DNA from: an uncultured Candidatus Saccharibacteria bacterium
Lineage (GTDB): Bacteria > Patescibacteriota > Saccharimonadia > Saccharimonadales > JBBQAJ01
DNA: 64,000 nt
Assembly: GCA_964593805.1 (NCBI GenBank)
Contig: CAZQHP010000001.1
Location: 453,283 to 517,282, forward strand
Direction: 5' to 3'
The notes beneath the pieces were generated by a model. That model was given only the letters and a program-made list of their open reading frames with translations, did no database searches and had not been told where the DNA came from. Positions 4,238 through 54,403 of this stretch are shown here, piece after piece. The position numbers and the translations under genes were made by a program. The first letter of the stretch is position 1. Each line of letters opens with the position of its first letter.

Positions 4238-4311
4238 AAGGGAAAAGAGCAGCCCGCCAAAATGTATTCCATTTTGCCGGCGCGATGAGAAAAACCGCAA
4301 GTTTGTCTCAT
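4238..4311 (+). repeat. Double-hairpin repeat element, copy A (clpC 5' UTR)
   Basis: aaGGGAAAAGAGCAGCCCG, hairpin 1 (CCAAAATG-tattc-CATTTTG), GGCGCG, hairpin 2 (ATGAGAaAAAC-cgcaa-GTTTgTCTCAT). Confidence 0.8.
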
Positions 4312-4335
4312 AACACTAAAGGATGGGTATAAATA

Positions 4336-6822
4336 ATGATGATGCCGCAATCACCAGATTTCCAAGAATTTTTGAATCATTTAACTGACAACGCATTGAG
4401 CAGTTTGAAGCACGCTGACGCTATTGCTCGCGGTTTTGGCGCCGCCTACGTGGGTACAGAGCACCTGCTGCTTGGCGTTTTGGCGCAAGACAGCAGCATG
4501 GGAGCCAAAATTTTGTCTGATGCTGGCGTTACGCTTGACCGAGCCCGCTTGGTACTAAACCTTACTCCAAAAACGCTTGTTATCAACCTAGGCGGCAAAG
4601 GCCTTAGCGAAACGGCCAAACTCACCCTCAAAATGGCGCAAGACGTGGCCCAGGAATTCAGCCAGGAATACACCGGCACGGAGCATATTTTATACAGTAT
4701 TTTAAGCCAAAAAAACGCCCGCGCTACCAAGCTCTTATCCGACATGAACGTAGACGTAGACGGTCTGAACAACGAACTGGAACAATTCCTAAACCGCCAG
4801 CAATACGAAGACGACACCCAGACGGGCACCGGAACCCGCAACAAACGCACTAAAAAACAACGCAAAACGGCGCTGGATTTTTTTGGCACCGATCTGACCA
4901 GCATGGCTCGGCAGGGCAAACTGGACCCGGTGGTGGGCCGCGAGCCGCAGATTAAACGGGTGATAACCATATTGAACCGCCGGACCAAAAATAACCCCGT
5001 GCTGATTGGCGAGCCTGGCGTTGGCAAAACAGCCATAGTCGAGGGGTTGGCCCAGCGCATTGTAGGCGAAGAAGTCCCGGATAGTTTGCTAGACAAGCGG
5101 ATTGTTATGCTAGACCTCGCCGGCATGATTGCCGGTACAAAGTACCGCGGCGAGTTTGAAGAACGGCTCAAAAAAGTCATGAGCGAACTAGAGCAAGACA
5201 AAAAAGTCATCGTGTTTATAGATGAACTTCACCTGATTGTGGGCGCCGGCGCCGCCGAAGGCGCAATGGATGCCGGAAATATTTTGAAACCGGCCCTGGC
5301 CCGCGGCAAAATCCAACTGGTTGGCGCCACCACCACAGCCGAATACACCAAGCACGTTGAAAAAGATGCCGCCCTGGAGCGGCGTTTCCAGCCCATCCAA
5401 GTACCAGAAGCCACCACCACCGAAACATTAGCCATTCTAAAAGGCTTGCGCAAGCACTACGAAGCGTTCCACGGCGTCAAAGTCAGCGACGAAGTCCTGG
5501 AAGACACCGTAACTCTGGCCAAACGCTACATAAACGACCGGTTTATGCCAGATAAAGCCATTGATTTGCTAGACGAAACCGCCGCCCACTTGCGGGTAGA
5601 CAAAGGCGTTACTCCGCCAGAAGTCCGCAAACTGCAAAAGGAGCTGAAGCTAGTGAATTCCCGCCGTGAAACCGCCGCCGACAACGAAGATTACGAAAGC
5701 GCCGCCAAGCACAAACAGAGGGCCAGCCAAATTAGCGAAGAACTCAAAAAACTAGAAGCCAGCGGCAAAGCCGTCAAACGGCTCACCATGAGTTCCGAGG
5801 ATGTGGCCGATGTGGTGGCTCGGATGACCGGCGTGCCGGTGAGCAAAGTTATCCGCTCCGAGGCAAAATACTTGCTAAATCTGGAAAAAAACCTGAGCAA
5901 GTTCGTGGTTGGCCAGGACGAAGCGGTTGCGGCCGTGGCCAAAGCCGTTCGGCGCAACCGTTCCGGCGTGGGTGCCGAAGGCCGTCCGATCGGGTCTTTT
6001 ATCTTTCTGGGGCCCACAGGCGTTGGCAAGACCGAATTGGCCCGCGTACTGGCCCGCGAATTCTTTGGGTCAGAAGACTCGCTGGTCAAAATTGACATGA
6101 GCGAATTCAACGAACATCACAACGTTTCACGGCTGGTAGGTGCTCCTGCCGGCTATGTCGGCTATGATGACGGCGGACAGCTAACGGACAAAATTCGCCG
6201 CCAGCCATACAGTCTGGTTCTGTTTGATGAAATCGAAAAAGCCCATCCGGACGTCTTCAACATGCTGCTCCAAGTTCTGGAAGACGGCGCCTTAACGGAC
6301 GCCAAAGGCCGCAAGATTGATTTCAGCAATACCATAATCATCATGACCAGCAACATCGGCGCCGATCGCCTGCAAAAAGAAGCCGCGCTGGGGTTTCAAG
6401 TTGGCGACAACGCGGATATGAACGACCTAGACAGTTTGCACCAAGCCAACAAAGACAAAGTCCAGGACGCGCTGAAAAAAATGATGCGACCGGAGCTAAT
6501 GAACCGCATAGATAAAACAATCGTATTCAGGGCGTTGACCAAGAAAGACATCCTGAGCATCCTGGATCTGCAGCTCGGCGAATTGCGCCAGCGGCTGGTA
6601 AAGCACGGCCTGGGCCTGCAGTTGACCAGCAGTGCCAAAGACTATCTGTTGGCAAACGGCTATGATGCCAAAAACGGTGTGCGCCCCATGCGCCGTTTGC
6701 TGCAAGATACGCTGGAAGACCACATGGCCATGGATTTGCTGGATAGCAAGTACCAAAAGGGCGACATCGTAAAAGTTACCGCCAAAAAAGACGATCTGCT
6801 CTACACTATAACTTCGGAGTAG
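4336..6822 (+). CDS. clpC: ATP-dependent Clp protease ATP-binding subunit ClpC
   Basis: 828 aa. Has two Clp_N repeats, two AAA+ modules (GEPGVGKT and GPTGVGKT) and a short coiled-coil linker. Confidence 0.9.
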
Positions 6823-6836
6823 GCTAAACTTACGAT

Positions 6837-7808
6837 ATGGGTCCTAATACAAAACGTTTCGGCAGGCTGGCCGCGATGGGGCTGGTTGTTGCCGCGCCGC
6901 TGGTTATCTGGACGCAGCGTTGGAACATATATGACACGTTGCGGTTGCGCGGCTACCAGCCGCCAGCCCAAATAGCCCAGCTGGCAACAGATACTTCGCT
7001 GAACGACGGTTCCCGCCGTTTGTTTTACGTATATCATCCCGAACTGGAGCAAAAGCAGGCTTTTAACGATAACTGCAAGTCTGCTGAAAAAACCATCGTG
7101 CTGGGCTGCTATGTTTCGGGCCGGGGGATTTACCTGTACAGCGTTACGGATGAGCGGCTTAATGGCGTGGTGCAGGTTACGGCTGCCCACGAAACGCTGC
7201 ACGCGGCTTATGAACGTTTGGATGGCCGGGAAAAACAGCGCGTCAAGGGGCTGATTGATGATGCTTATGCCAAGCTAACCGACCAGCGCATCAAAGATAC
7301 CATAGAAGATTACCGCCAGAACGGCGCCGACATAACCAATGAACTGCATTCTATACTTGGCACGGAAGTCCGCAGTTTGCCTGCCGAGCTGGAACAGTAC
7401 TATTCCCGCTACTTTACGAACAGATTGAAAATAGTCGAGTACTCCGAAAAGTACGAACAGGCATTCACGGAACGTAAAAACAGAATAGCCGATGCTGACC
7501 GGCAGTTAGAGGCTCTGAAACAACAGATAAATGCCGGAGAAGCCAGCCTAGGCGCGCTGTCGCAAGAACTTAAAAATGAACGAGCTCGCCTGGACAAGCT
7601 GCTAGCTAGCAAAGACTATGCCGCCTACAATGCGGCCGTGCCGGGTTTTAATTCGCGTGTCAATGCTTACAACGCCCAGGTTGGGCAGGTAAGGCGTTTG
7701 ATAGACCAGTTTAACGCGCTGGTAGCCGAGCGAAATTCGATTGCCGCCGAAGAAAACGATCTATACAAAGCCATAGACAGCCGCCCCGACACTTTGAAAA
7801 CGCAGTAG
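6837..7808 (+). CDS. Hypothetical membrane-anchored protein with an HExxH motif and a C-terminal coiled coil
   Basis: 323 aa. Has an N-terminal TM segment (LAAMGLVVAAPLVIW), AAHETLHAAYE, and a heptad-like Q/A/E/L-rich C-terminal third. Confidence 0.55.
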   Translation: MGPNTKRFGRLAAMGLVVAAPLVIWTQRWNIYDTLRLRGYQPPAQIAQLATDTSLNDGSRRLFYVYHPELEQKQAFNDNCKSAEKTIVLGCYVSGRGIYLYSVTDERLNGVVQVTAAHETLHAAYERLDGREKQRVKGLIDDAYAKLTDQRIKDTIEDYRQNGADITNELHSILGTEVRSLPAELEQYYSRYFTNRLKIVEYSEKYEQAFTERKNRIADADRQLEALKQQINAGEASLGALSQELKNERARLDKLLASKDYAAYNAAVPGFNSRVNAYNAQVGQVRRLIDQFNALVAERNSIAAEENDLYKAIDSRPDTLKTQ

Positions 7809-7825
7809 TCTGGTAAACTTGAGGC

Positions 7826-9172
7826 ATGGCAAAAAAAGATTCGGTGCGGTACGTTTGCGGCAGCTGCGGGGCGGTTAGCCCCGCCTGGAGCGGTCGCTGT
7901 TACAGTTGCGGCGAATGGAATACCCTGCAGGAACAGCTGAGCGTCAGTATTGGCCAAGTCAAAAGCGGTGGCAAAAACCTGCAAACCCAAACTGTCTCTG
8001 GGTCTTTGGCAAAAGACCACAAACGCTTGCTCAGTGGTATTAGCGAAGTAGATACGGTGTTTGGCGGCGGTATTGTAACTGGCAGCGTGAATTTGCTGGC
8101 TGGGCAGCCCGGCATAGGCAAAAGTACATTGCTGTTGCAGTTGGCGCACGAAATGGCAAAAAAGTACAAGGTTTTATACGTTAGCGGCGAAGAGTCTGCC
8201 CACCAGATTGGTCTGCGCGCCGACCGTTTGGGCGCGACGGGGAAAAACCTGCAACTGGCTACCAGTAACAGCGCAGATGACGTAGCTAGCACTATCGCCA
8301 GCGGTAAATTTCAGCTGGTTGTAGTGGATTCTATCCAGACCATGAGCGTGGGAGCGATTGCTTCAGCGGCTGGGAACGTCAGCCAGATTACAAACAGTAC
8401 AGCTCTACTAACTGTAGCGGCCAAACAAGCAGACACGGCGCTACTGCTGGTGGGCCATGTTACCAAAGAAGGCTCTATAGCCGGCCCTAAAGTGTTAGAG
8501 CACGTGGTAGATGTAGTCTTGCAGCTGGAAGGCGATCGCTACGGCGGTTTCAAAATACTCCGAGCTATCAAAAACCGCTACGGGTCAACCAATGAAGCCG
8601 GTATATTTGAAATGGCAGACAGCGGCCTCCGGCCGGTAGAAAACCCCTCCGCGGCGCTTTTGGCCGAACGCCAGGCCAGCGACGGCTCGGTAGTGCTGGC
8701 CACCATGGAAGGCAGCCGGCCGCTGCTGGTTGAAGTCCAGGCGCTGGTGAACCGCACCAGCTACGGTTACCCCAAACGCACCGCCAGCGGGATTGACCTA
8801 AACCGCGTCAATTTGCTAGTGGCCATGCTAGAAAAACGCACCAAACTGAACCTGGCCGACCAAGACATCTACATAAACATCGTGGGCGGTATCAAACTCA
8901 CCGAACCGGCAGCCGACCTAGCCGTCTGCATGGCCATAGCCAGCGCCTCCAAGGGCATGCAACTTAAAAAGAACGCCGTGGTTTTTGGCGAGGTTGGCCT
9001 AAGCGGCGAAGTCCGCCACGTACCATTTTTGGATAAACGGATTGCCGAGGCTAAAAAGCTAGGTTTTGACAGCGTAATTGGCCCGGTTATTAAGAGTGGG
9101 AAAAAACAAGCAAACTACTTTGGGATGACCGACGTTCGTAGCGCTCTCAATACCTTCCTAGAAGGTAAGTAG
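7826..9172 (+). CDS. radA: DNA repair protein RadA/Sms
   Basis: CxxC-x10-CxxC zinc finger (CGSCG...CYSCG), Walker A GQPGIGKST, KNRYG motif and a Lon-like C-terminal domain. Confidence 0.92.
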   Translation: MAKKDSVRYVCGSCGAVSPAWSGRCYSCGEWNTLQEQLSVSIGQVKSGGKNLQTQTVSGSLAKDHKRLLSGISEVDTVFGGGIVTGSVNLLAGQPGIGKSTLLLQLAHEMAKKYKVLYVSGEESAHQIGLRADRLGATGKNLQLATSNSADDVASTIASGKFQLVVVDSIQTMSVGAIASAAGNVSQITNSTALLTVAAKQADTALLLVGHVTKEGSIAGPKVLEHVVDVVLQLEGDRYGGFKILRAIKNRYGSTNEAGIFEMADSGLRPVENPSAALLAERQASDGSVVLATMEGSRPLLVEVQALVNRTSYGYPKRTASGIDLNRVNLLVAMLEKRTKLNLADQDIYINIVGGIKLTEPAADLAVCMAIASASKGMQLKKNAVVFGEVGLSGEVRHVPFLDKRIAEAKKLGFDSVIGPVIKSGKKQANYFGMTDVRSALNTFLEGK

Positions 9173-9177
9173 CTATG

Positions 9178-12198: not shown

Positions 12199-12230
12199 GT
12201 GGCTACTATGTACTCCCTAGTAATCCCCCT

Positions 12231-12239
12231 AGTATAGCA
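12231..12239 (-). promoter_or_regulatory. Extended -10 promoter of the PBP1A gene (TGcTATACT)
   Basis: The minus strand reads ttTGcTATACTaggggg, about 32 nt upstream of the ATG at 12198. Confidence 0.45.
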
Positions 12240-13557: not shown

Positions 13558-14418
13558 ATGCCAAAAACAACCAAAAAAAATGCAGCTAGGGGAGAGCAGC
13601 CCGAGAGGCGGATTCATTCCGCCCCCGGCGCGTTGAGAGGGGATGTTCCCCTCTCAAAAGCGAAGCGCAAAAAAGCAGATCAGTACGACGAAGGCGGGTA
13701 CAATTACCTCCGTTATTGGGATGGGCGCGATTACGAACACGCGTCTGAAGAAATGGCCATAAAGCGGTTGCTCAAAGGCAAGCACTTTAAAACCGCCGTG
13801 GATATTGGCGGCGGCTACGGCCGACTCTGCGTTTTTTTGGAAAACTTCGCGGACAAAGTTACTCTGGCGGAGCCGTCTAAACAGCAGCTGGAAATTGCCA
13901 AAGATTTTCTAAAAGGCCACCCGGAAATTGACCAAGTGCTCACCCAGGCAGACGATATTAAACTGGCTGATAAGTCGCAAGAACTAATCACGATGATCCG
14001 CGTGATGCACCATTTGCCCAGCCCGCGCGAAGAATTCAAAGAACTGCACCGTGTGTTAAGTGACGACGGCTACCTACTGCTAGAAGTTGCCAACTACGGC
14101 CATGCTAGGAATCGCATAAAACACATTGTTCGCTTCAAGAGCCTGCCTAGCGAACCGGTAGACATCCGCTCACCTGAAAATAGAAACGACGCCGAAATAT
14201 CTTTTGTAAACCACAACCCCCGCACGGTGGTAAAGCAGCTGGCTCATGCCGGCTTCAAAGTAGAAAGGGTCTTGTCCGTATCAAACCTGCGTAGCCCCAG
14301 CCTCAAAAAAATTCTCCCTCGTGGAATAATGCTCAGCCTGGAAAAGATCATGCAGCCAACCCTGGCCAAAACCTACTTTGGCCCCAGTATTTTCTTCCTG
14401 ATTCGCAAAGCGAAGTAG
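13558..14418 (+). CDS. Class I SAM-dependent methyltransferase (start uncertain)
   Basis: VDIGGGYGR is the motif I glycine loop. The first ~37 codons read through repeat copy D. There is no alternative in-frame ATG before the conserved YDEGGYNYLRYW region; an in-frame TTG lies at 13633. Confidence 0.7.
   Translation: MPKTTKKNAARGEQPERRIHSAPGALRGDVPLSKAKRKKADQYDEGGYNYLRYWDGRDYEHASEEMAIKRLLKGKHFKTAVDIGGGYGRLCVFLENFADKVTLAEPSKQQLEIAKDFLKGHPEIDQVLTQADDIKLADKSQELITMIRVMHHLPSPREEFKELHRVLSDDGYLLLEVANYGHARNRIKHIVRFKSLPSEPVDIRSPENRNDAEISFVNHNPRTVVKQLAHAGFKVERVLSVSNLRSPSLKKILPRGIMLSLEKIMQPTLAKTYFGPSIFFLIRKAK
13588..13668 (+). repeat. Double-hairpin repeat element, copy D (inside the 5' end of the methyltransferase ORF)
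   Basis: AGGGGAGAGCAGCCCG, aga, hairpin 1 (GGCGG-attcatt-CCGCC), GGCGCG, hairpin 2 (TTGAGAGGGGA-tgt-TCCCCTCTCAA), AAGCGAAGCGC. Confidence 0.8.
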
Positions 14419-30861: not shown

Positions 30862-30930
30862 AGGGGAGAGTAGCCAGCCAAAATGTATTCCATTTTGCCT
30901 GCGCGATGAGAGGGGATGTTCCCCTCTCAT
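30862..30930 (+). repeat. Double-hairpin repeat element, copy B (upstream of rpsL)
   Basis: AGGGGAGAGtAGCCaG, hairpin 1 (CCAAAATG-tattc-CATTTTG), ccTGCGCG, hairpin 2 (ATGAGAGGGGA-tgt-TCCCCTCTCAT). Confidence 0.8.
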
Positions 30931-43692: not shown

Positions 43693-43893
43693 ATGAAAAT
43701 TGCTGAAATCCGCAAAATTAAGACCGGCGAGCTGGCAACCGAAAGTACTAAACTGCGCGAAGAAATTGCCGAAATCCGCCGCCGTGTACACATGGGTGAA
43801 ACCACCAATGTCCGGCAATTGCGCACCAAGCGTAAAGATTTAGCCCGTATGTTAACAGTATTATCTGAACAACTAATTAAGGAAGCCTCATGA
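43693..43893 (+). CDS. rpmC: 50S ribosomal protein L29
   Basis: 66 aa. Called by position and its coiled-coil L29 pattern. Confidence 0.9.
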   Translation: MKIAEIRKIKTGELATESTKLREEIAEIRRRVHMGETTNVRQLRTKRKDLARMLTVLSEQLIKEAS

Positions 43894-43906
43894 GTATTTG
43901 CAGCCT

Positions 43907-43980
43907 AAGGGAAAAGAGAGCCCGAGACTTGAGCTTTGCTCAAGCACGGCGCGATGAGAAAAACCGTAGGTTTGTCTCAT
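43907..43980 (+). repeat. Double-hairpin repeat element, copy C (between rpmC and rpsQ)
   Basis: aaGGGAAAAGAGAGCCCG, aga, hairpin 1 (CTTGAGC-ttt-GCTCAAG), caCGGCGCG, hairpin 2 (ATGAGAaAAACC-gta-GGTTTgTCTCAT). Confidence 0.8.
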
Positions 43981-44002
43981 GGGCAATTAAGGAGAGCATG
44001 TA

Positions 44003-44419
44003 ATGGCTAAGACACTCACCGGTGTTGTATCAAGCGACCGCGCCGACAAAACAATTGTCGTTACAGTGCGGACCCGTAAAACACACCCTATTTACAAGAA
44101 ACAATATACCGTCAGCACAAAATTCATGGCACACGACGAGCAGAATGAAGCCAAGCTGGGCGACCAAGTCATAATCAGCGAAACTCGTCCTATATCTGCC
44201 CGCAAGCGCTTCATGCTGGAAAAAGTGCTTGAGCGCGCCGTAATCCGCCATGAAGAACCCGAAGAGACCGAAAAGCCTAAAGATACAAAGAAAAAGACTG
44301 AAGTGAATACCTCAGAGTCGCCAGTCGAAAGTCCAAAGTCAAAAGTAAAAGAATCTGGGACAAAACTAAAGACTAGCGACAAGAAACTAAAGACTGCGAA
44401 GCCGGAGGCGGAGTTATGA
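44003..44419 (+). CDS. rpsQ: 30S ribosomal protein S17 with a ~55-aa K/E/S-rich C-terminal extension
   Basis: 138 aa. The S17 core ends near LERAVIRH. The tail is encoded by a heptamer-periodic tract. Confidence 0.93.
44316..44399 (+). repeat. Heptamer-periodic tract encoding the S17 C-terminal tail
   Basis: AGTCGCC AGTCGAA AGTCCAA AGTCAAA AGTAAAA GAATCTG GGACAAA ACTAAAG ACTAGCG ACAAGAA ACTAAAG ACTGCGA. Confidence 0.75.
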
Positions 44420-46442: not shown

Positions 46443-46461
46443 GGAATAATAAGGAAATATT

Positions 46462-47001: not shown

Positions 47002-47004
47002 ATT

Positions 47005-47361: not shown

Positions 47362-47362
47362 T

Positions 47363-47986
47363 ATGGCTGAATTTGGACAAGACCGAGGCAACCGCCCCAA
47401 CCGCGATAATCGCCGCGACGGTATGCAAGAAGAAAAACAATTTGACGAACGAGTCGTTCACATTGACCGCGTAGCCCGCGTAGTTAAGGGCGGCCGCCGC
47501 TTCCGCTTCCGAGCGCTAGTGGTGGTAGGCGACCACAAGGGCAAAGTGGGCATTGGCATTGCTAAAGGCGCGGACGTAACTTCTGCTGTCACAAAGGCGG
47601 TGGACGTTGCCAAAAAGCATTTTGTGACCATTCATATAGTCAACGGTACTGTTCCGCACGAATCAGAGGTCAAAGTGGGCGGTGCGCGGATTTTAATTAA
47701 ACCAGCCGTACTTGGTACCGGTTTGATAGCCGGAGGAGTTGTTCGCACGGTTCTGGAAGTAACCGGTATCAGCAACGCGTTGTCCAAATCACTCGGCTCT
47801 AGTAATAAAATCAACACCGCTTACGCCACTCTCGCCGCGCTTCAAGCTATAGAGCATCCGGACAAATGGATTACCAAGCAAGGCAAAAAAGCTAACAGCA
47901 AACAGTTGACAGCTGACAGCAAAGAAACTAAAAAACTGGCGACCAGTGGCAAGTCACTGGCTACCGCTCCCAAGGAGTCCACATGA
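47363..47986 (+). CDS. rpsE: 30S ribosomal protein S5 with basic N- and C-terminal tails
   Basis: ATG at 47363 (MAEFGQDRG) follows SD GGAGG. Has VVKGGRRFRF. The ORF-track start at 47282 overlaps rplR. Confidence 0.94.
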   Translation: MAEFGQDRGNRPNRDNRRDGMQEEKQFDERVVHIDRVARVVKGGRRFRFRALVVVGDHKGKVGIGIAKGADVTSAVTKAVDVAKKHFVTIHIVNGTVPHESEVKVGGARILIKPAVLGTGLIAGGVVRTVLEVTGISNALSKSLGSSNKINTAYATLAALQAIEHPDKWITKQGKKANSKQLTADSKETKKLATSGKSLATAPKEST

Positions 47987-48453
47987 AATTTCATGAGCTA
48001 AACGTCACATCAAACAGCGCCTCTCGGCGCGTTGGGCGCGGTATAGCTGCTGGCCAAGGTAAAACGGCTGGCAGGGGTACAAAGGGACAAAAGTCCCGTG
48101 CCGGCAGCGGCCGCCGTCCTGGCTTTGAAGGCGGCCAAAACCCCCTGATGCAACGCCTGCCAAAATTGCGCGGGTTTCGCAGCAACCGTGTGGCCATGGA
48201 AACTGTATACACGGGCCAATTAGACAACTTGGGGGCAACAATAGACAACTTTACGCTCGCAGACGCCGGGCTTATCACCAGCCCCTATGTGCGCGTTAAA
48301 TTAGTGGTAAAGGGCGATGTTGCAAAAAAAGTGACTGTTAAGTTGCAGGCAGCCAGCGTTTCTGCCGTAGAGGCTTTGCAAAAGCATGGCGGCAGCTTCC
48401 AGGCAACACCGCAAGTAGCCCGCCAAAAACAAGAAAAACCAGAAAAGAAGTAA
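47983..48453 (+). CDS. rplO: 50S ribosomal protein L15
   Basis: 156 aa. Has GRGIAAGQGKTAGRGTKGQ. It follows rpsE directly, with no L30 gene between them. Confidence 0.95.
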   Translation: MKFHELNVTSNSASRRVGRGIAAGQGKTAGRGTKGQKSRAGSGRRPGFEGGQNPLMQRLPKLRGFRSNRVAMETVYTGQLDNLGATIDNFTLADAGLITSPYVRVKLVVKGDVAKKVTVKLQAASVSAVEALQKHGGSFQATPQVARQKQEKPEKK

Positions 48454-48536
48454 GTTTTATATAGGCTCAGTCTTGGTGAAGTTCTGGTGTTAAGCTATAC
48501 TTTAGTAGATTTATAAAGAGACAAAGAGGGTAGTTA

Positions 48537-50036
48537 ATGAGTTGGAAAGTTATCTGGACATCACTCAAAAGCAGCGATATGCGCAAGCGGATTCTGGCTG
48601 TTTTGGGCATGCTTCTGATTTTCCGCATCTTAGCCCACATACCTATTCCGCTTAGCAATCCGGAAACTCTCAAACAGGTCCTGGAAAACCTATTTACCAG
48701 CTCTCAAACACCTACTTTGCTTAGTTTTATAGACGTACTTTCTGGCGGAGCATTGGCTAACTTTTCAATCATGCTCGTTGGGCTGGGCCCATACATTAAC
48801 GCGTCCATTATTATTCAACTCCTTACAAAAGCCATCCCCCAGCTAGAGAATCTGAATAAAGAGGGCGAATTCGGGCGCAAAAAAATCAACCAGTACACCC
48901 GTATGCTGACTTTCCCGCTGGCTATTATCCAGTCTGTCGGGGCAATTTATCTGGTTCGGCAGTCCGCGCAGCAGATTGGCGGCATAGGCGATATAACCGC
49001 AAACACATCCATGATGCAATGGGTATTGATGGTCGCGGCACTAACGGGCGGAGCCATGATTTTGATGTGGCTTGGCGAACTCATAACCGAACAGAGCGTA
49101 GGAAATGGTATTTCGCTGTTAATTACAGTCGGAATCGTCAGCAAACTGCCCGGCACTATTGCGTCCATACTCGGTTCAATTGTGGATAAAGGTAGCCAGT
49201 TTGTGGTGTTTGGCAAAACCTTGCCAATCAACAAAGCATCTCTGATATACGGGTTGCTAATACTGTTGATAGTCGTTGTGGTGACAGTGCTTATCGTGAG
49301 GCTCAATGAAGCTGCTCGCCAGATTACTGTGCACTACGCAAAGCGAGTTCAGGGAAATCGAGCGTATGGAGGTGTTACGACAATTTTACCCGTCAAACTA
49401 ATTACTGCTGGGGTGATCCCAATCATTTTTGCTGTCGCTTTTTTGAGCGTACCAAGTTTTGCCGGACAGCTGATGACAACATCTCACAGCGCCCATCTTC
49501 AAGAAATAGGGTCAAAACTAGTGCTATGGTTCCAGACGCCAACCGCGCAGACGCTCCGAAGTCCTGGACTTATACCTTACATCTACCCGGCCGTGTATTT
49601 CTTTTTAGTGTTTGTGTTTACGTTTTTCTATACCAGTATCACTTTTAACGCCAAGGAAATAGCTGAAAACTTACAAAAACAGGGTGGCTTCATAGCCGAT
49701 GTACGGTCTGGGACGCAAACTGAAAAGTATTTGGGGCGGCTGGTAAACCGGCTTACATTGTTTGGCGCGCTTAGTTTAGGTATGTTGGCGCTACTGCCTA
49801 TTATTGGCCAAAGGTTCTTGCAGACGAACATCGCCATTGGCGGCACCAGTATCTTGATCTTGGTGTCTGTTGCTCTGGAAACTTTGCGCTCCATAGAATC
49901 ACGCGCCCTGATGGTGACCTACGACCAATATGAACAACCCGATTTCTTCTACGACAGCGACCAGCCAGCTCAAGCGGCTACTGGTGGCAGGATACTAAGA
50001 TTTATACCACGGCCAAAGCGAAAAAAACAACAATAA
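48537..50036 (+). CDS. secY: Preprotein translocase subunit SecY
   Basis: 499 aa with 10 TM segments. Has a basic C-terminal tail. Confidence 0.95.
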   Translation: MSWKVIWTSLKSSDMRKRILAVLGMLLIFRILAHIPIPLSNPETLKQVLENLFTSSQTPTLLSFIDVLSGGALANFSIMLVGLGPYINASIIIQLLTKAIPQLENLNKEGEFGRKKINQYTRMLTFPLAIIQSVGAIYLVRQSAQQIGGIGDITANTSMMQWVLMVAALTGGAMILMWLGELITEQSVGNGISLLITVGIVSKLPGTIASILGSIVDKGSQFVVFGKTLPINKASLIYGLLILLIVVVVTVLIVRLNEAARQITVHYAKRVQGNRAYGGVTTILPVKLITAGVIPIIFAVAFLSVPSFAGQLMTTSHSAHLQEIGSKLVLWFQTPTAQTLRSPGLIPYIYPAVYFFLVFVFTFFYTSITFNAKEIAENLQKQGGFIADVRSGTQTEKYLGRLVNRLTLFGALSLGMLALLPIIGQRFLQTNIAIGGTSILILVSVALETLRSIESRALMVTYDQYEQPDFFYDSDQPAQAATGGRILRFIPRPKRKKQQ

Positions 50037-50171
50037 TTCTTATCTGGGAAACTTCTTTGCAAAGTATTGACAAGTCTGATATACTTGAGCCTTGTTATAC
50101 GAGCAGCACGCAGGAAAGCAGGAGTTTACTCATTCTTTCCGAGTGCTACGTCGTAAACGAAGTTATAATCT

Positions 50172-50390
50172 ATGGCGAACAAAGAGGTTATCGAACTAGC
50201 AGGAACAGTAGTAGAGGCCTTACCAGGTACTCAGTTCCGTGTTGAACTCGAGAACGGTCACAAGATTATAGCTCACGTCGCCGGTAAGATGCGGAAACAC
50301 TACATTCGCCTCGTGCCGGGGGACAGCGTTACGGTCGAGTTGACCCCTTATGATCTTACTAAGGGCAGAATCACCTATCGCAAGTCATAA
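50172..50390 (+). CDS. infA: Translation initiation factor IF-1
   Basis: 72 aa. Has an S1-like fold ([20 protein letters not shown]). Confidence 0.96.
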
Positions 50391-50438
50391 CAATATAAGC
50401 AGTGTGTCATTCACTACAGAAAAAGGAGAATGATCCGC

Positions 50439-50555
50439 ATGAAAGTGCGTGCAAGTGTCAAAAAAATCAGCCCCGACGACAAAATTGTGCGTCGTAAGGG
50501 CCGTGTTTATGTTATCAATAAGCTGAAACCTAAGCACAAGCAGAGGCAAGGCTAA
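50439..50555 (+). CDS. rpmJ: 50S ribosomal protein L36 (Cys-free form)
   Basis: 38 aa: [38 protein letters not shown]. It is below the ORF-track size cut-off. SD GGAG lies upstream. TAATG overlap with rpsM. Confidence 0.9.
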
Positions 50556-50941
50556 TGGCGCGTATCTCAGGTGTGACAATTCCGGATGGCAAGCAAGTGC
50601 ACGTAGCTCTTACTTACGTATACGGGATCGGCCCAAAAACGAGTGCGGTAATTCTGGCTGCTGCTGGCGTAGATGCAACAACTCGGGTAAAAAACTTGAC
50701 CGACGCGGAAATTGGTAAAATTCAGGACGTTATAAATGACCAGCACATGGTTGAAGGTGAACTACAGCGTGTGGTAGCTACGAATATCAAGCGACTCAAA
50801 GACATTAAATCTTATCGGGGCGAACGGCATAGCAAAGGCTTGCCAAGCCGTGGTCAACGTACTCGTACCAATGCTCGCACCCGGCGCGGTAAGAAAACTG
50901 CTGTAGGCGGTTCACAGCCTAAATCAGCGAGCAAGACATAA
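50555..50941 (+). CDS. rpsM: 30S ribosomal protein S13
   Basis: 128 aa. Starts MARISGV. Confidence 0.96.
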   Translation: MARISGVTIPDGKQVHVALTYVYGIGPKTSAVILAAAGVDATTRVKNLTDAEIGKIQDVINDQHMVEGELQRVVATNIKRLKDIKSYRGERHSKGLPSRGQRTRTNARTRRGKKTAVGGSQPKSASKT

Positions 50942-50947
50942 GGAATC

Positions 50948-51424
50948 ATGATGGCAGACCCTAAAACACCACCAGTTACAGATGAAAAACCAGAAACTAG
51001 CGAGCAGGTAGCTGCTACAGATGCAACGGCAGTAGTTGCTCCAAAAACGCCAAAGAAAAAGAAAGCCAAACGCTCAGTTCCGGCCGGACAATTGCATATC
51101 CTGGCAACTTTCAACAACACCATTGTGACTTTTACGGACAATGCCGGCGGTGTGCTGGCGACATCTAGCGCCGGCGCTTGCGGTTTTCGTGGTTCAAAAA
51201 AAGGCACCGCCTACGCGGCCCAAGTGGCAGCCGAAAAAGCCGGTCAATTAGTTAGGCAATTCTATGGATTAAGCCGGGTTGACGTCTACGTTAAGGGTAT
51301 TGGCTTGGGACGGGAGGCCGCCATCCGAAGCTTACAAAACATGGATATTCACGTTGAAAGCATCCGCGACGTAACTACGATCGCCCATGGTGGCGTCCGT
51401 CCGCGAAAGGCACGAAGGGTTTAA
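50948..51424 (+). CDS. rpsK: 30S ribosomal protein S11 with a ~35-aa N-terminal extension
   Basis: 158 aa. The S11 core begins at GQLHILATFNNTIVT. Confidence 0.94.
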   Translation: MMADPKTPPVTDEKPETSEQVAATDATAVVAPKTPKKKKAKRSVPAGQLHILATFNNTIVTFTDNAGGVLATSSAGACGFRGSKKGTAYAAQVAAEKAGQLVRQFYGLSRVDVYVKGIGLGREAAIRSLQNMDIHVESIRDVTTIAHGGVRPRKARRV

Positions 51425-51428
51425 TCGT

Positions 51429-52049
51429 ATGGCTAGAGATACCGGATCAATTGTAAAAATGAGCCGCCGCGAAGGCTATGCTCTTCATCCCAAAGCCCAC
51501 AAGGCTCTGGTTAAACGCACGGCTACGCCAGGCCAGCAAAATACTGGCCGCGGCTACCGCGCCAAAACTAGCCAGTACTCGCTGCAGCTGCGTGAAAAGC
51601 AGAAAGTGAAGCGTTTGTATGGATTGCTGGAAAAACAATTCAGCAACCTCATGAAAGAAGCTGCCCGGCGTGAGGGCCAGTCTGGCGAAATGCTTTTGCA
51701 GTTGCTCGAACAGCGTGCCGACAACGCCGTCTACCGTGCCGGGCTGGCAACTTCTCGCCGTGCCGCTCGCCAGCTTGTTACCCACGGCCACTTTATGATT
51801 AACGGCCGCCGTTTTGACATCCCGTCTCTCCGCTTAAAAGCGGGCGATGAACTAGTGGTGCGGGACCACGGCAAACAAACCGAGTACTTCAAGCGATTAG
51901 AAGATGTAAGTCCAGCTCCTGCCAGCCTTCCCGGCTGGTTGAAAGCTGACCGGAAGAAGCTGACCGTCAGCGTTACCGGTTTACCTACGCGCGAAGAAGC
52001 TGAGCCGGATATTAATGAACAACTAATCGTCGAGTACTACTCACGCTAA
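51429..52049 (+). CDS. rpsD: 30S ribosomal protein S4
   Basis: ATG at 51429 (MARDTGSIVKMSRREG). Has an S4 RNA-binding domain. The ORF-track start at 51387 overlaps rpsK. Confidence 0.95.
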   Translation: MARDTGSIVKMSRREGYALHPKAHKALVKRTATPGQQNTGRGYRAKTSQYSLQLREKQKVKRLYGLLEKQFSNLMKEAARREGQSGEMLLQLLEQRADNAVYRAGLATSRRAARQLVTHGHFMINGRRFDIPSLRLKAGDELVVRDHGKQTEYFKRLEDVSPAPASLPGWLKADRKKLTVSVTGLPTREEAEPDINEQLIVEYYSR

Positions 52050-52067
52050 GCCAAGGAGGCAAAACTT

Positions 52068-53009
52068 ATGTCAAAAATAATTCACACACCAGGAGTCGTA
52101 CGCGTTGATGAACACAGCGCCTTGAGCGCAACCTTCACAGTAGAGCCTTTGCACACCGGCTACGGTATGACGCTGGGCAATTCTTTGCGCCGAGTGCTGC
52201 TTTCTTCAATCGCGGGAGCGGCTGTCACTTCGTTCAAAATCGAAGGCGTTACGCACGAGTTTACTACGGTGAAAGGCGTCAAAGAAGACGCCGTAGACAT
52301 CATGATGAACCTCAAATCCATCCGCTTCCGCGTGTTTAGCGATGAGCCGCAAAACCTGCGTATTGTCCATCAGGGCAAGGGCGTTGTAACAGCCAAAGAT
52401 ATTCAGACAAACGCCGAAGTGGAAGTAGTCAATCCAAAGCAAATCATCGCCACTATAGACGAAGACAAGACAAAGTTTGTAATTGATCTGGTGGTGGAAA
52501 CGGGCCGCGGCTACCGAACCATAGAAGAAGGCGCTGCCAAAAAGGCTAGCGACCACGTTGCGCTAGATGCTATTTTCACTCCTGTTTTGCGCGTACGTTA
52601 CAAGGTTGGAAACACTCGGGTTGGTCAAATGACCGACCTGGACAAACTGTTGCTGAGCGTAGACACCGACGGGTCAATTACGCCCGCGGACGCGTTTGAA
52701 GAAGCGGCGGCAATTCTGGTAAACCAATACACGGCACTGGCCGGTCAGACACGCGTGGAAGCGTCTGCTCCGTTGTCTATGGGCGGCGAGGCTTCTGATT
52801 CCAAAGATTCTGATGAGCCCGCGGAACTGATGACTCCAATTGAAGACCTGAATCTTTCGGCCCGCACCACTAACGCGCTTATCAATAACGACATCCACAC
52901 CCTGAAAGACCTATTCGCACTGAGCGACACGGAACTCCGTGAGCTCAAGGGCTTTGGCAGCAAGGCCTTAGACGAAGTCAAGGAAAAGATGGCGGAGATG
53001 GAGCTCTAA
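52068..53009 (+). CDS. rpoA: DNA-directed RNA polymerase subunit alpha
   Basis: 313 aa with the N-terminal dimerisation domain and the C-terminal HhH domain. Confidence 0.96.
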   Translation: MSKIIHTPGVVRVDEHSALSATFTVEPLHTGYGMTLGNSLRRVLLSSIAGAAVTSFKIEGVTHEFTTVKGVKEDAVDIMMNLKSIRFRVFSDEPQNLRIVHQGKGVVTAKDIQTNAEVEVVNPKQIIATIDEDKTKFVIDLVVETGRGYRTIEEGAAKKASDHVALDAIFTPVLRVRYKVGNTRVGQMTDLDKLLLSVDTDGSITPADAFEEAAAILVNQYTALAGQTRVEASAPLSMGGEASDSKDSDEPAELMTPIEDLNLSARTTNALINNDIHTLKDLFALSDTELRELKGFGSKALDEVKEKMAEMEL

Positions 53010-53010
53010 G

Positions 53011-53475
53011 ATGCATCGCCACGGCTACAAAGGACGTAAATTTCATAGAGAGCGCGACCAGCGCGAAGCCCTGCTGCAGAGCCTGGCCGAGTCCTTGATT
53101 AAGCACGAGTCTATTGAAACCACTTTGCCAAAAGCCAAAGAAATCGTGCCCTACGTCGAAAAGCTTATAACCAAAGCCAAAAAGGGCGATTTACATAATC
53201 GCCGCCAGATTATCAGCGACTTGCAGACGATTGGAACCGCCCACAAGCTGGTAGATGAAATCGCTCCTAAGTTGACAGGACGCGACAGCGGACATTTGCG
53301 GGTGGTGCGAACACGCCTGCGCCGTGGAGACAATGCCCAGCTGGCCCGAGTAAGCTTTGTAGATGATTTAAAGGAAGCACCGGTTGCCAAACCGACCGCA
53401 GCACCCAAAAAGGTTGCCACCCCGGCCAAGAACCCCGTTGCTAAAAAGGCCCCAGCCAAGAAAGCGGCAAAATAA
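53011..53475 (+). CDS. rplQ: 50S ribosomal protein L17 with an A/K/P-rich C-terminal tail
   Basis: 154 aa. The L17 core is followed by a KPTAAPKKVATPAKNPVAKKAPAKKAAK tail. Confidence 0.94.
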   Translation: MHRHGYKGRKFHRERDQREALLQSLAESLIKHESIETTLPKAKEIVPYVEKLITKAKKGDLHNRRQIISDLQTIGTAHKLVDEIAPKLTGRDSGHLRVVRTRLRRGDNAQLARVSFVDDLKEAPVAKPTAAPKKVATPAKNPVAKKAPAKKAAK

Positions 53476-53915
53476 TGAAAACTTATAGCGCTAAACCAAC
53501 AGATGTAACCCGCAAATGGTATGTAATTGACGCTTCAGAAGCGCCCCTGGGCCGCATGGCTACTGTTGTGGCAACTCTTTTGACCGGCAAAGGCAAGCCT
53601 CAGTTTACGCACCACATTGACTGCGGCGATTTTGTAGTTATCATCAATGCCCAAAATCTAGTAGTTACTGGAAACAAGATGGAAGACAAGAAATATTATC
53701 GTTATAGCGGCTACCCAAGCGGTCTTACTACCACGGCCCTGCAGGACTTGATGGCCAAAGATGCCACCCAGCCAATTTACAAAGCCGTTCGCGGCATGTT
53801 GCCGGTAAACAAGTTGCGCGCCGAACGGCTTAAACGACTAAAGATTTACGCGGGCGCAGAGCACGAACATGCCGCCCAGAAACCAGAAAAATTATCAGTG
53901 AAAGCAGGCAAATAA
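53475..53915 (+). CDS. rplM: 50S ribosomal protein L13
   Basis: 146 aa. Has KWYVIDA. Confidence 0.96.
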   Translation: MKTYSAKPTDVTRKWYVIDASEAPLGRMATVVATLLTGKGKPQFTHHIDCGDFVVIINAQNLVVTGNKMEDKKYYRYSGYPSGLTTTALQDLMAKDATQPIYKAVRGMLPVNKLRAERLKRLKIYAGAEHEHAAQKPEKLSVKAGK

Positions 53916-53916
53916 T

Positions 53917-54321
53917 ATGGCAGACAAAGCAAAACACTATTTCTACGCGCTTGGCCGGCGCAAAAGCTCTACTGCCCGCGTTCGCCTAATGAACGGCAAA
54001 GGAACTATTACTATCAACGGCAAATCAGCTGCCGAATACCTAGCAGATAGCAAATCACTGCTGCACGAACTAGAACGTCCCTTTATAGCCCTTGAGATTC
54101 AGAATAAGTACGACGTCAGCGCCGTTGTTTCCGGTGGCGGGCACAGCAGCCAGATAGACGCTATCCGCCTAGGAATCGCCAAAGCCCTAGCTGTCATGAA
54201 CGAAGACCTCCGCAGCACACTCAAACGAGCTGACATGCTTGGCCGCGACCCTAGAGAAAAAGAACGCAAAAAGTTCGGCCTCAAAGGCGCTCGCAAACAA
54301 CGCCAGTTCACGAAGCGCTAG
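53917..54321 (+). CDS. rpsI: 30S ribosomal protein S9
   Basis: 134 aa. Has GGGHSSQ and a C-terminal KR. Confidence 0.96.
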   Translation: MADKAKHYFYALGRRKSSTARVRLMNGKGTITINGKSAAEYLADSKSLLHELERPFIALEIQNKYDVSAVVSGGGHSSQIDAIRLGIAKALAVMNEDLRSTLKRADMLGRDPREKERKKFGLKGARKQRQFTKR

Positions 54322-54403
54322 CGGCTTCGCCTTATGAGAGGGGAATATCCCCTCTCATCGCGCCGGCAAAATGGAATACATTTTGGCGGGCTGCTCACCC
54401 CTA
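54321..54403 (-). repeat. Double-hairpin repeat element, copy E (inverted orientation, abutting the rpsI stop)
   Basis: The reverse complement reads AGGGGtGAGCAGCCCG, hairpin 1 (CCAAAATG-tattc-CATTTTG), ccGGCGCG, hairpin 2 (ATGAGAGGGGA-tat-TCCCCTCTCAT), AAGGCGAAGCCGC. Confidence 0.8.

Follow-up and report, generated by a model that had tools for sequence, protein, structure and literature searches.

The five repeats in the window, by which we mean the whole 64,000-nucleotide stretch of DNA analysed here, are members of a large, undescribed, class-wide family of mobile repeats of about 80 bases (element about 75-100 nt) of Saccharibacteria. We think it probable that the element is non-autonomous, that its folded single strand is the feature under selection and that the copies we see are survivors at gene boundaries. 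The family census was a pattern scan of species-representative genomes and gave at least 120 loci, all of which, apart from the window, come from metagenome-assembled genomes. Among the matches listed, true copies occur at 118 of 120 loci, and the carriers are nearly all labelled Saccharibacteria, Saccharimonadales or Saccharimonadia. A preliminary description of the window had proposed a search of relatives for more copies; true copies exist at no fewer than 118 loci, and a covariance model adds divergent copies inside the same loci. The same description could match the element to no known RNA family, and a search of Rfam likewise gave no match; no description of the element was found in full-text literature searches.

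The five copies, A to E, lie where they were first placed, at 4238-4311, 13588-13668, 30862-30930, 43907-43980 and, inverted, 54321-54403, and Pfam upholds the gene names given to their surroundings (NusA/ClpC, TyrRS/methyltransferase, RpoC/S12, L29/S17 and S9). With a covariance model built from relatives they score 63-78 bits (E 1e-18 to 1e-22), and the window holds no sixth copy, the next full-length match to the same model reaching 9 bits. Matches in the window to GGCGCG(A/T)TGAGA (0-1 mismatch) and to GAGCAGCCCG (0-1 mismatch, 2 in copy C) are confined to copies A-E. The modules follow one another in a fixed order: an optional lead (TTTGCAGCTAA-like, with stop codons), a purine box, GAGCAGCC, hairpin 1, GCGCG and hairpin 2. 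A mini hairpin 3 of the GCGAAGC type often closes the element, as in copies B and E. The modules combine as a mosaic, as noted earlier. Terminal inverted repeats are lacking, and between core and flanking repeat lie anywhere from 0 to 22 nt at the 5' end and from 3 to 19 nt at the 3' end, which leaves the precise limits of the element undefined. The features in the window are as follows.

4240-4249, + strand: copy A purine box GGGAAAAGAG, with TAA directly before it (4237-4239)
4252-4283, + strand: copy A hairpin 1, GCCCG-C-CAAAATG / CATTTTG-C-CGG-c-GC (minimum-energy fold, family covariation)
4285-4311, + strand: copy A hairpin 2, ATGAGAAAAACC..GGTTTGTCTCAT, A.G mismatch inside (fold, family covariation)
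13576-13585, + strand: left remnant of the direct repeat flanking copy B, AAAAATGCAG
13589-13596, + strand: copy B purine box GGGGAGAG, exact mirror of hairpin 2 GAGAGGGG
13599-13631, + strand: copy B hairpin 1, core GGCGG / CCGCC (minimum-energy fold)
13633-13657, + strand: copy B hairpin 2, TTGAGAGGGGA..TCCCCTCTCAA, closing pair flipped to T-A
13660-13668, + strand: copy B mini hairpin 3, GCGAAGCGC
13669-13678, + strand: right remnant of the direct repeat flanking copy B, AAAAAAGCAG
30863-30870, + strand: copy C purine box GGGGAGAG (from sequence)
30873-30904, + strand: copy C hairpin 1, CAG/CTG replacing CCG/CGG (fold and family covariation)
30906-30930, + strand: copy C hairpin 2 (minimum-energy fold)
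43875-43883, + strand: duplicated Shine-Dalgarno region of copy D, left, AATTAAGGA, at the end of rpmC
43890-44003, + strand: 37-codon bridging ORF through copy D (read from sequence)
43909-43918, + strand: copy D purine box GGGAAAAGAG (from sequence)
43920-43952, + strand: copy D hairpin 1, core CTTGAGC / GCTCAAG (minimum-energy fold)
43954-43980, + strand: copy D hairpin 2 (minimum-energy fold)
43985-43993, + strand: duplicated region of copy D, right, AATTAAGGA, now the rpsQ Shine-Dalgarno sequence
54323-54331, - strand: copy E mini hairpin 3 GGCGAAGCC, one base off the rpsI stop (54319-54321, + strand)
54334-54358, - strand: copy E hairpin 2 (minimum-energy fold)
54360-54391, - strand: copy E hairpin 1 (minimum-energy fold)
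54394-54401, - strand: copy E purine box GGGGTGAG, with T opposite an A-T pair

The promoter at 4179-4206 (TTGACC-16-TATAAT) predicts a start site about 27 nt before the box of copy A, which puts this copy in the clpC 5' UTR. Copy C occupies part of the interval from the rpoC stop (30790) to the rpsL start (31006). The whole of copy B forms codons 11-37 of the methyltransferase ORF (13558-14418), in frame and upstream of the Pfam domain, which begins at residue 68; its ortholog at locus L015 has AAAAAAGCCG at both sides. The antisense placement of copy E after rpsI recurs at locus L045.

The fold of two hairpins and a purine tract is clearly kept by selection. The z-scores of copies A-E folded singly, relative to shuffled sequences, run from -2.1 to -3.6; in four of the five minimum-energy folds the purine box takes no part in pairing. 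Covariation is strong in both hairpins. Across the 124 copies among the matches listed, paired cells amount to 85% (67% in shuffles) and the covariation score to 0.41 (0.12 in shuffles); none of 500 shuffles reaches the observed covariation, bearing out the earlier proposal of a selected structure rather than a by-product of recent duplication. Two column pairs left free in the search pattern vary in a compensatory way among the matches listed (22/51: C-G 100, A-U 23; 57/88: A-U 111, U-A 12), and copies found by the model only carry G-C, A-U and U.G variants at otherwise constant bases. The constant segments are nearly invariant class-wide. Hairpin 1 is long, irregular and free in sequence; it is closed by CCG/CGG plus G-C and C-G pairs across a bulged C, and the CAG/CTG closure of copy C is a compensatory change. 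As first drawn, this hairpin was too short. Similarly, the reported flip of the pair closing hairpin 2 from A-T to T-A is real but belongs to copy B (TTGAGA..TCTCAA), not to copy D.

A further constraint ties the purine box to hairpin 2. In about 13 sequence classes the box mirrors the purine arm of this hairpin; in copy A it mirrors GAGAAAAACC under the family rule. The box had been left out of the search pattern. Among the matches listed, box and hairpin agree at a mean of 8.2 of 9 positions, a match unreached in 2000 shuffles (0/2000) of the 56 distinct box/hairpin-2 combinations, and, for n from 2 to 5, 99 of the 104 copies scored have matching A-run lengths (n-1 = k). The triads counted in the same matches are A*A-T (502), G*G-C (302) and T*A-T (10), the T variant of the copy E box being present in 7 of 124 copies. 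The antiparallel GA/GT triplex motif is made up of these triplets (PMC2532714). A mirror match of this kind is what one would expect of an intramolecular triple helix, which probably forms physically. Two features count against it: in A-rich classes the rule must skip one stem position, and box G's stand opposite C-G pairs, not a canonical triplet, in 207 cases among the matches listed. The mirror covariation had gone unnoticed in the preliminary description.

Evidence for mobility comes from the flanks. Among the matches listed, about one fifth of the copies lie between direct repeats of the neighbouring gene end, many of them 100% identical; repeats scoring at least 10 accompany 23 of 125 copies and none of the cross-paired control flanks. 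Two of the 27 repeat pairs in these matches (L079 and L012) are mere similarity of neighbouring tRNA genes. The others are mostly 21-60 nt long, include 53/53-like, 50/50, 48/48, 45/45 and 44/44 matches, and invariably contain a gene start or stop. They were probably made at insertion. At five ribosomal-operon junctions some species carry a copy and others none, and the Shine-Dalgarno/stop-start region has been duplicated. At the L29/S17 junction, the site of copy D, L021 lacks the element while L019 and L026 have it, the latter with a 21-nt repeat. Two different subtypes stand in tandem after one gene end at L032, and L064 carries a fossil copy. Counting against this reading, the differences in diverged repeat pairs are almost solely synonymous (61:16), a bias that simple neutral decay of a target duplication does not predict; recombination with functional alleles or selection on both copies must be invoked. 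The preliminary description had set its selected structure against an ordinary mobile repeat. The long flanking direct repeats do mark a mobile repeat, but one of no known REP or MITE family and not of the ordinary kind.

In the cycle that we consider probable, the element in single-stranded form would lay its box back against hairpin 2, antiparallel to the purine arm, to make the third strand of a triplex. Selection would keep this triplex fold and not the sequence of the stems; the fold would serve mobility as the substrate recognised by a putative copying machinery, which could be the reason for its conservation. Insertion would duplicate roughly 20-55 bp of target, and in these tightly packed genomes a copy would persist only if the duplicated segment took in a gene start or stop and thereby left both neighbouring genes intact. 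Orientation would come under selection after insertion, with sense copies alone persisting in operons and in the leaders of tRNA or rRNA. Translational coupling between two genes separated by a copy would be restored by a small read-through ORF, and copy B would simply be translated within the N-terminal tail of its protein. The loci examined, which cover the genomes in part, yielded no gene for a transposase, a reverse transcriptase or any other means of mobilisation.

Placement near highly expressed genes had suggested a cis-acting RNA. On this account, which we regard as unlikely, the element is a host module in the 5' leaders or UTRs of tRNA, rRNA, ribosomal-protein and clpC transcripts, where the box strand would, as RNA, stabilise or process transcripts or prevent premature termination, rare duplicates being kept as useful. 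In copy A and in tRNA-linked copies the box does follow a near-consensus promoter at a distance of 20-35 nt, and several copies stand just before 23S rRNA, after a boxA-like word. Among the matches listed, the sense orientation alone is seen inside operons and tRNA leaders: all 16 copies in ribosomal/EF operons are sense, and 25 copies share their strand with a tRNA whose 5' end follows 3-12 nt later, as against 2 with the tRNA on the other strand. Inner-stem wobbles in these matches favour the box strand (G.T 16, A.C 6). A host function would also agree with the segments that stay constant class-wide and with the consistent sense placement in leaders of stable RNAs. The whole family, however, does not conform. 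Orientation relative to local genes is near random (61:51 among the matches listed); many copies are antisense to both neighbours, either directly behind a stop codon or ahead of lepA, tpiA or msrA; one copy lies within an ORF; the five tRNAs of the window have none; and the same junction may be filled or empty depending on the species. Fresh copies with perfect 44-53-nt flanking repeats are insertions, not conserved regulatory sites. Either orientation, the copy within an ORF, variable occupancy and flanking repeats together argue against a fixed regulatory RNA. A small protein or leader peptide would account for the ATG at the base of hairpin 2 and for the read-through ORFs; two of three sense frames are stop-free in about 80% of copies among the matches listed, and a bridging ORF in one frame is present in all operon copies. 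Yet a coding role is highly improbable, contradicted by a reading frame that is not conserved: the hairpin 1 span modulo 3 falls in all residue classes (66/45/15 among the matches listed), with the same kind of variation in the length of hairpin 2. The changes in the stems are of the compensatory and not of the synonymous kind, the peptide is altogether different from one hairpin type to the next, and tRNA-leader and antisense copies have no such ORF.

Two further accounts concern the manner of movement. A bacterial SINE-like retroposon, a tentative possibility and one way in which a non-autonomous mobile element could work, would be transcribed on the box strand from a nearby promoter and reverse transcribed into a staggered target nick; in tRNA-linked master copies the RNase P cut at the tRNA would set the 3' end. 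The long, variable flanking repeats, the ragged 5' junctions, the short 3' tails (3-10 nt, or stopping directly behind hairpin 3), the lack of replication-direction bias and the RNA-style covariation of the fold all agree with this, as do the many copies in strongly transcribed pre-tRNA leaders, whose distance to the tRNA (3-12 nt) corresponds to the length of the 3' tails of fresh copies. Against it, no reverse transcriptase was identified in the loci examined, there is no A-tail or 3' repeat, 5'-truncated copies were not seen among the matches listed, and extra 5' and 3' bases are not common to sibling copies of one genome; moreover, a purine third strand is reportedly a poor triplex former as RNA (Semerad and Maher 1994). 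A REP/REPIN-like or IS200/IS605-like single-stranded DNA element, whose hairpins a tyrosine HUH transposase (RAYT/TnpA) would recognise on the lagging-strand template, is a good deal harder to credit. It draws support from the conserved hairpin mismatches (A.C in 80 and A.G in 93 of 124 copies among the matches listed), from the antiparallel G*G-C, A*A-T, T*A-T rule, a motif typical of DNA, and from guide-like single-stranded bases 5' of a hairpin. Those systems, however, are not known to make a target duplication, whereas the repeats here are long; they show a strong replication-direction bias, whereas orientation relative to GC skew is 58:54 here among the matches listed. There is also no GTAG-type tetranucleotide, and no inverted copy pair flanks a transposase gene in 930 kb of loci.

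Parallels with described systems are partial. Rickettsia palindromic elements (RPEs) are selfish repeats of a reduced genome, short, structured and present in many copies, intergenic or in frame in genes and then translated (PMC10969869). Copy B and L015 likewise lie in frame within a protein-coding gene, but RPEs belong to another phylum, measure about 100-150 bp and have a conserved peptide, whereas the frame is unconserved here. We know of no sequence relationship between the two, nor of any report of mirror/triplex covariation or 40-55-bp flanking duplications for RPEs. MITEs (Correia/NEMIS, Chunjie, ERIC and others) are small, non-autonomous and multi-copy, with direct repeats that flank young copies and become less distinct in older ones; as RNA they form stable stem-loops, and Chunjie sits in operons without breaking them (PMC10969869). 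The Saccharibacteria element is also small, non-autonomous and multi-copy, with direct repeats at young copies; it differs in having no known parent insertion sequence and no terminal inverted repeats (4-30 bp in MITEs), and in flanking repeats of 21-60 nt and variable length instead of short target duplications. REP/BIME/REPIN-RAYT sequences resemble it as interspersed imperfect hairpins at gene boundaries, long conserved and in either orientation. REPs are thought to move as folded single strands. They are 20-40 nt long and strictly extragenic, with a conserved tetranucleotide, no known target duplication and a tie to a RAYT gene, features of which our element shows none. Long, variable direct repeats (8-514 bp) are made on insertion by IS1634 and IS1549, by a mechanism not agreed upon (PMC2266710). 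These are the known bacterial elements with that property, but they are 1.5-2 kb long, have a DDE transposase and terminal inverted repeats, and come from another phylum, whereas the present element has about 80 nt and neither.

In intramolecular triplexes (H-DNA mirror repeats; the MALAT1/PAN ENE, telomerase and SAM-II RNAs) a third strand runs in the major groove along a purine strand, as predicted here, and the antiparallel GA/GT motif is classically recognised by a purine mirror-repeat tract. As in MALAT1, the predicted triples continue for 4-5 steps before an interruption. The natural RNA triplexes known to us use a pyrimidine (U/C+) third strand, and H-DNA arises within duplex mirror repeats; the strand predicted here is purine, joined to its target hairpin via another hairpin, within a mobile repeat. 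Finally, the bridging ORF of copy D begins with an ATG overlapping the rpmC stop (ATGA) and ends with a TAA overlapping the rpsQ ATG (TAATG), and ten operon copies in other species show the same arrangement and frame. MIRU (Supply et al. 1997) are said to be intercistronic repeats, sense in operons, whose small ORFs overlap the neighbours' stop and start and so keep translational coupling. Sense placement and a bridging ORF are shared with the present family, but MIRU are tandem minisatellite units without a conserved fold; in Saccharibacteria the bridging ORF seems to have been acquired secondarily, in adaptation to a structured element that had inserted.

The element considered here is a repeat of about 80 bases made up of a purine box, hairpin 1, GCGCG, hairpin 2 and often a mini hairpin 3; the strand bearing the box is called the box strand, and L-numbers denote loci from other genomes that carry the element. 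A covariance model built from relatives recovers the five copies in the window where the preliminary description had placed them, at 63-78 bits each, and finds no further full match above 9.4 bits in the 64 kb.

Copies of the element in the window (each at the place given in the preliminary description)
4237-4311, + strand: copy A, in the clpC 5' UTR
13589-13668, + strand: copy B, in the methyltransferase ORF
30863-30930, + strand: copy C, before rpsL
43909-43980, + strand: copy D, between rpmC and rpsQ
54401-54323, - strand: copy E, after rpsI

The neighbouring genes named in the preliminary description are backed by Pfam (NusA and ClpC, TyrRS and the methyltransferase, RpoC and S12, L29 and S17, and S9). 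The constant words GAGCAGCCCG and GGCGCG(A/T)TGAGA are confined to the five sites at 0-1 mismatch, except that copy C has GAGCAGCCCG with 2 mismatches, and the folds of all five copies beat their own shuffles (z = -2.1 to -3.6). Two details need amendment. The flipped closing pair of hairpin 2 that had been assigned to copy D belongs to copy B; and hairpin 1, although real, is longer than was claimed, being closed by CCG/CGG and, across a bulged C, by one G-C and one C-G pair more.

The family proposed from these copies is real and far larger than five members. When one genome per species was scanned for AGCCMG, CKGCGCGWTGAGA and TCTCA, all other positions of the pattern being free, at least 120 loci matched; 118 of the matches listed are true copies, and two of the listed loci, in Elusimicrobiota and Clostridium, are chance matches that lack the box. 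Among the matches listed, nearly all true-copy loci are labelled Saccharibacteria, Saccharimonadales or Saccharimonadia. Bona fide elements on contigs binned as Burkholderiaceae and Gemmatimonadaceae (L087 and L115) lie beside Saccharibacteria-like tRNA contexts and are probably binning errors. The covariance model added about 20 copies, some of them divergent, within the same loci. Altogether there are at least 145 copies in 118 loci, and 5 in 64 kb, of a non-coding element of ~75-100 nt. Viral contigs gave 0 matches to the strict pattern and 25 loci with a relaxed one; the model rejected all of these, the single weak match being coding sequence. The view that the element belongs to no known RNA family also stands, as Rfam 15 has no match to it at any threshold: only 5 tRNAs in the window pass the gathering threshold, and relaxing E to 10 yields no more than chance matches of 9-15 bits, at copies A and E. 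No description of it was found in the full-text literature on Saccharibacteria/TM7 repeats, hairpins and MITEs; the 224-motif paper contains only lysM-TM7.

That structure rather than sequence is conserved, as had been surmised from the five copies, is borne out by an alignment of 124 sequences. Standard pairs occupy 85% of its pair cells against 67% in shuffles, and the covariation score is 0.41 against 0.12, a value reached by none of 500 shuffles; in every slid register, pairing falls to 41-48%. Two column pairs that the search pattern had left free covary almost perfectly: 22/51 (C-G in 100 copies, A-U in 23) and 57/88 (A-U in 111, U-A in 12). Copies found by the model alone supply G-C, A-U and U.G variants where the bases are otherwise constant; in addition, their base helix can be perfect (GCAAGC/GCTTGC) and their hairpin 1 bifurcated. 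On the box strand, two positions are typically not Watson-Crick, one near the base of hairpin 1 (A.C in 80 of 124, C.C in 17) and the other at the fifth pair of hairpin 2 (A.G in 93 of 124).

A further regularity concerns the purine box, which was absent from the search pattern. Read backwards, the box is the purine arm of hairpin 2: GGGGAGAG occurs with GAGAGGGG, GGAGGAGAG with GAGAGGAGG, GGAGATGAG with GAGAAGAGG and GAGGGGAG with GAAGGGAG. Among the A-rich classes, a box of the form GG(G)-A(n)-GAG is matched by GAGA-X-A(n-1)-CC for n = 2 to 5, as seen in 99 of 104 scored copies. Scored with the third-strand base equal to the purine of the pair, the rule is obeyed at 8.2 of 9 positions on average, and among 56 distinct combinations of box and hairpin 2 the observed match is attained in none of 2000 shuffles. 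It persists even where hairpin 1 is expanded or bifurcated (L050 5586-5676 and L064 1451-1544), which marks hairpin 1 as a tolerant, variable domain. To our knowledge no copying process produces mirror repeats, and they are predicted if a third strand runs antiparallel to the purine strand of a duplex.

The arrangement is that of an antiparallel purine-motif (GA/GT) intramolecular triplex, in which the third strand mirrors the duplex's purine strand. The triplets implied (A*A-T 502, G*G-C 302, T*A-T 10) are those of this motif (PMC2532714). Chain topology is compatible as well: at the foot of hairpin 1, the box emerges with its 3' end and the purine arm with its 5' end. Some features are non-canonical: 106 of 124 copies skip one position of the stem, and the 5' G's of the box stand opposite C-G pairs in 207 cases. 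From these patterns in the sequences we infer that the box may fold onto hairpin 2 as an intramolecular triple helix. Were the box instead Watson-Crick paired to the 3' arm of hairpin 2, only 3-6 pairs would form and the matching lengths of the A-runs would go unexplained. On the opposite strand, the third strand would be of pyrimidines (C+*G-C, U*A-U) and topologically just as valid, so that topology alone cannot fix the strand. RNAfold favours this opposite strand as the functional RNA, yet the effect comes wholly from one conserved A.C position, which weakens that reading and does no more. Outside the special position, wobble pairs (16 G.T against 6 A.C) favour the box strand, and the A.G mismatch and those boxes that have a T variant also make us lean towards it. 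We know of no precedent for a covarying purine third strand in a mobile element. As comparative evidence for a triple helix whose third strand is purine, the three-way covariation of the box with the 5' and 3' arms of hairpin 2 is unusually clean, and it offers a small natural model for direct tests on oligonucleotides.

Signs of mobility of the element lie in the adjoining DNA. Direct repeats of this DNA flank about one fifth of the copies (23 of 125 score 10 or more, as against none of the cross-paired controls). Most of the 27 repeat pairs measure 21-60 nt, with matches such as 52/53, 50/50, 48/48, 49/50, 45/45 and 44/44; those of L079 and L012 reflect mere similarity of neighbouring tRNA genes. 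Every flanking repeat contains a gene start or stop, which is expected if, with spacer DNA almost absent, a long duplication is the sole way of leaving both neighbours intact. Variable spacers separate core and repeats (0-22 nt on the 5' side; 3-19 variable bases on the 3' side, either 3-10 nt or ending after hairpin 3), so the exact ends of the element are undefined. When the operon junctions L29-S17, S17-L14, L5-S14, L23-L2, L13-S9 and L17-L13 were compared, five proved to be filled or empty depending on the species, and at filled junctions the Shine-Dalgarno/stop-start region is duplicated. At L032 66-273, two different subtypes stand in tandem after one gene end, which is consequently present in three copies. 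A fossil insertion, at L064 2380-2500 (- strand), consists of the box and GAGTAGC alone between two diverged copies of a gene end. The window's own copies are old; just 9-10 nt of flanking repeat are left, at copies B and D. Exact protein matches to the window genes came from the same genome and from one contig broken at copy D, and showed no strain polymorphism. That contig (L122, a Logan short-read contig with an identical S17 gene) stops 50 nt upstream of S17, inside copy D (window 43950-44003), which indicates that the repeat breaks assemblies.

Where the two flanking repeats have diverged, they have done so almost exclusively at synonymous sites. Counted in the real gene frame, synonymous and other changes number 8:0, 9:0, 8:0, 3:0, 3:0 and 9:4 in individual pairs and 61:16 overall, the near-synonymous-only differences being those of L054 (8 of 8 codons), L059 (9 of 9), L050, L049, L048 and L064. 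A decaying remnant should not behave in this way. Selection on both repeat copies would account for the pattern; the most economical explanation, however, is that homologous recombination may have exchanged one side for another lineage's functional allele, or that this side may derive from such an allele. If such replacement did occur, insertion alleles travel between lineages, an exchange at which the synonymous-only divergence hints.

The genomic setting bears on whether the element is a cis-acting RNA of highly expressed genes, as the preliminary description implied. In favour, 16 of 16 copies within ribosomal-protein/EF operons are in sense orientation, and 25 copies lie 3-12 nt upstream of a same-strand tRNA, with 2 on the opposite strand. 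The tRNA-linked copies and copy A are found 20-35 nt downstream of near-consensus promoters, and in several cases the element comes between a boxA-like word and 23S rRNA. Against the proposal, there are antisense copies at the ends of transcription units, where they directly follow the stop codon (copy E and L045), and others upstream of lepA, tpiA or msrA; orientation over the family is near random with respect to local gene direction (61:51), and there is no replication-strand bias (58:54 relative to GC skew). Orientation is thus strongly filtered locally though near random overall, and a cis-acting role is at best part of the story. Copies A, C and E have no terminator-like site (a G+C-rich hairpin with a T/U run directly behind it) on either strand; at several loci a canonical terminator adjoins the element. 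A promoter within hairpin 2 (TTGAGA-N17-CATAAT) was discarded because the length of this hairpin varies from 24 to 29 nt and the real promoters lie upstream of the box. Many Saccharibacteria tRNA and operon promoters share a -10 hexamer followed, after ~3 nt, by CC(C/T)CTGTT, a conserved motif around the transcription start; such promoters were seen ~30-60 nt upstream of the element in L002, L009, L011, L037, L043, L055, L060, L085, L115 and L119.

Reading frames around the insertions show how the host accommodates them. In each of the 11 operon copies that were read, an ORF of 35-45 codons begins at the ATG left over in the upstream copy of the repeat, crosses the element in a single frame and ends on the downstream start codon or beside it (43890-44003 in the window). 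In copy B and its ortholog in L015, the element lies, and is translated, in frame in the N-terminal tail of the methyltransferase ORF. The lengths of hairpins 1 and 2 fall in all residue classes modulo 3, with no conserved frame or peptide, hence the element itself is not a gene. Its 5' lead often has TAA or TAG in two frames, and just after hairpin 2 in the operon copies of L074, L021, L008 and L007 the mini hairpin 3 is GCCGGAGGC, whose GGAGG is the downstream Shine-Dalgarno; the element therefore brings its own stop and ribosome-binding signals. Split Shine-Dalgarno arrangements are known, as in T4 gene 38. A version in which the box binds the ribosome and hairpin 1 brings it to an ATG in hairpin 2 was rejected, given that neither frame nor peptide is conserved and that many copies have no downstream gene. 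For annotation, the element produces false N-terminal extensions and small ORFs, as at copies B and D.

In its working the element resembles the small selfish repeats of other reduced genomes, the Rickettsia palindromic elements, as well as MITEs and REPs, and the preliminary description had left room for a known REP or MITE with target-site duplications. The flanking repeats are indeed present, but the element departs from either class in defining features. MITEs have terminal inverted repeats of about 4-30 bp and short target duplications (PMC10969869). Like them, the element is small, non-coding, multi-copy and non-autonomous; unlike them, its inverted repeats are internal hairpins only, its ends ((TTTGCAGCTAA)GGGAAAAGAG... 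and ...GGTTTGTCTCAT, plus the GCGAAGC hairpin) are not complementary, and its flanking repeats are 21-60 nt and variable rather than short and of fixed length. REPs are imperfect palindromes of 20-40 nt with a conserved 5' tetranucleotide, strictly extragenic; REP/REPIN-RAYT systems make no target duplication, and their orientation is tied to replication direction. The element differs in having two or three hairpins over ~80 nt, no GTAG-type word, members inside an ORF (copy B and L015), long flanking repeats and an even orientation relative to GC skew. Such systems also have a cognate RAYT (Y1 transposase) gene with copies on its flanks; none was noticed beside copies of the element. Rickettsia palindromic elements offer a parallel in behaviour, namely insertion in frame within an ORF; they encode a conserved peptide, whereas no peptide frame is conserved across this family. 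With MIRU it would share translational coupling across the element. SINE-like retroposons provide another likeness, in duplications of variable length (21-60 nt) and in ends that are defined on the 3' side and ragged (0-22 nt) on the 5' side; no partner reverse transcriptase was found, nor any A-tail or simple repeat at the 3' ends. Flanking duplications of 40-55 bp have few precedents and no accepted mechanism: IS1634 and IS1549, the only elements known to make long variable duplications, have no mechanistic model (PMC2266710).

The best-supported reading is that the element is a structured, putatively triplex-forming, non-autonomous mobile element of Saccharibacteria. It is possible, if on the unlikely side, that it is the substrate of an undescribed transposition pathway in which a single strand (DNA or RNA) would be recognised through a purine-motif triple helix clamped onto a hairpin and pasted with target duplications of ~50 bp. 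If true, this would be the first SINE-like retroposon known from bacteria, or else a single-strand integrase system of a new type; either would be at work today in the reduced Saccharibacteria genomes. It would also be the first natural element to have covariation in all its three strands in support of a triple helix. No split element that could be an autonomous version or a parent insertion sequence, with its 5' and 3' halves far apart and an ORF between, was found in 930 kb of loci, and in a donor-flank test the sibling copies of L021, L026 and L036 had no extra 5' or 3' bases in common. Saccharibacteria genomes are among the smallest and most streamlined of bacteria. A family still inserting, perhaps with tens of copies per genome, means that even these genomes carry selfish DNA, and it suggests a mobilising activity that nobody has described. 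On the practical side, short-read assemblies break at the element, and it could be used to mark strains.

Two other features of the window were noted in passing. A near-consensus promoter (TTGACA-16-TATATT, 54417-54444, + strand) is followed, ~95 nt further on, by a hairpin that resembles a terminator and has a T run (54539-54565, + strand) and then by GAGGAGG and the ATG of an 84-aa ORF without a Pfam hit; the stretch 54417-54580 (+ strand) might represent a small RNA or else a short leader of the attenuator type. Just upstream of nusA, the segment 2840-2951 is dense in TCAATG and CATTGA words, which form a 36-nt imperfect inverted repeat, and looks like a cluster of putative protein-binding sites.
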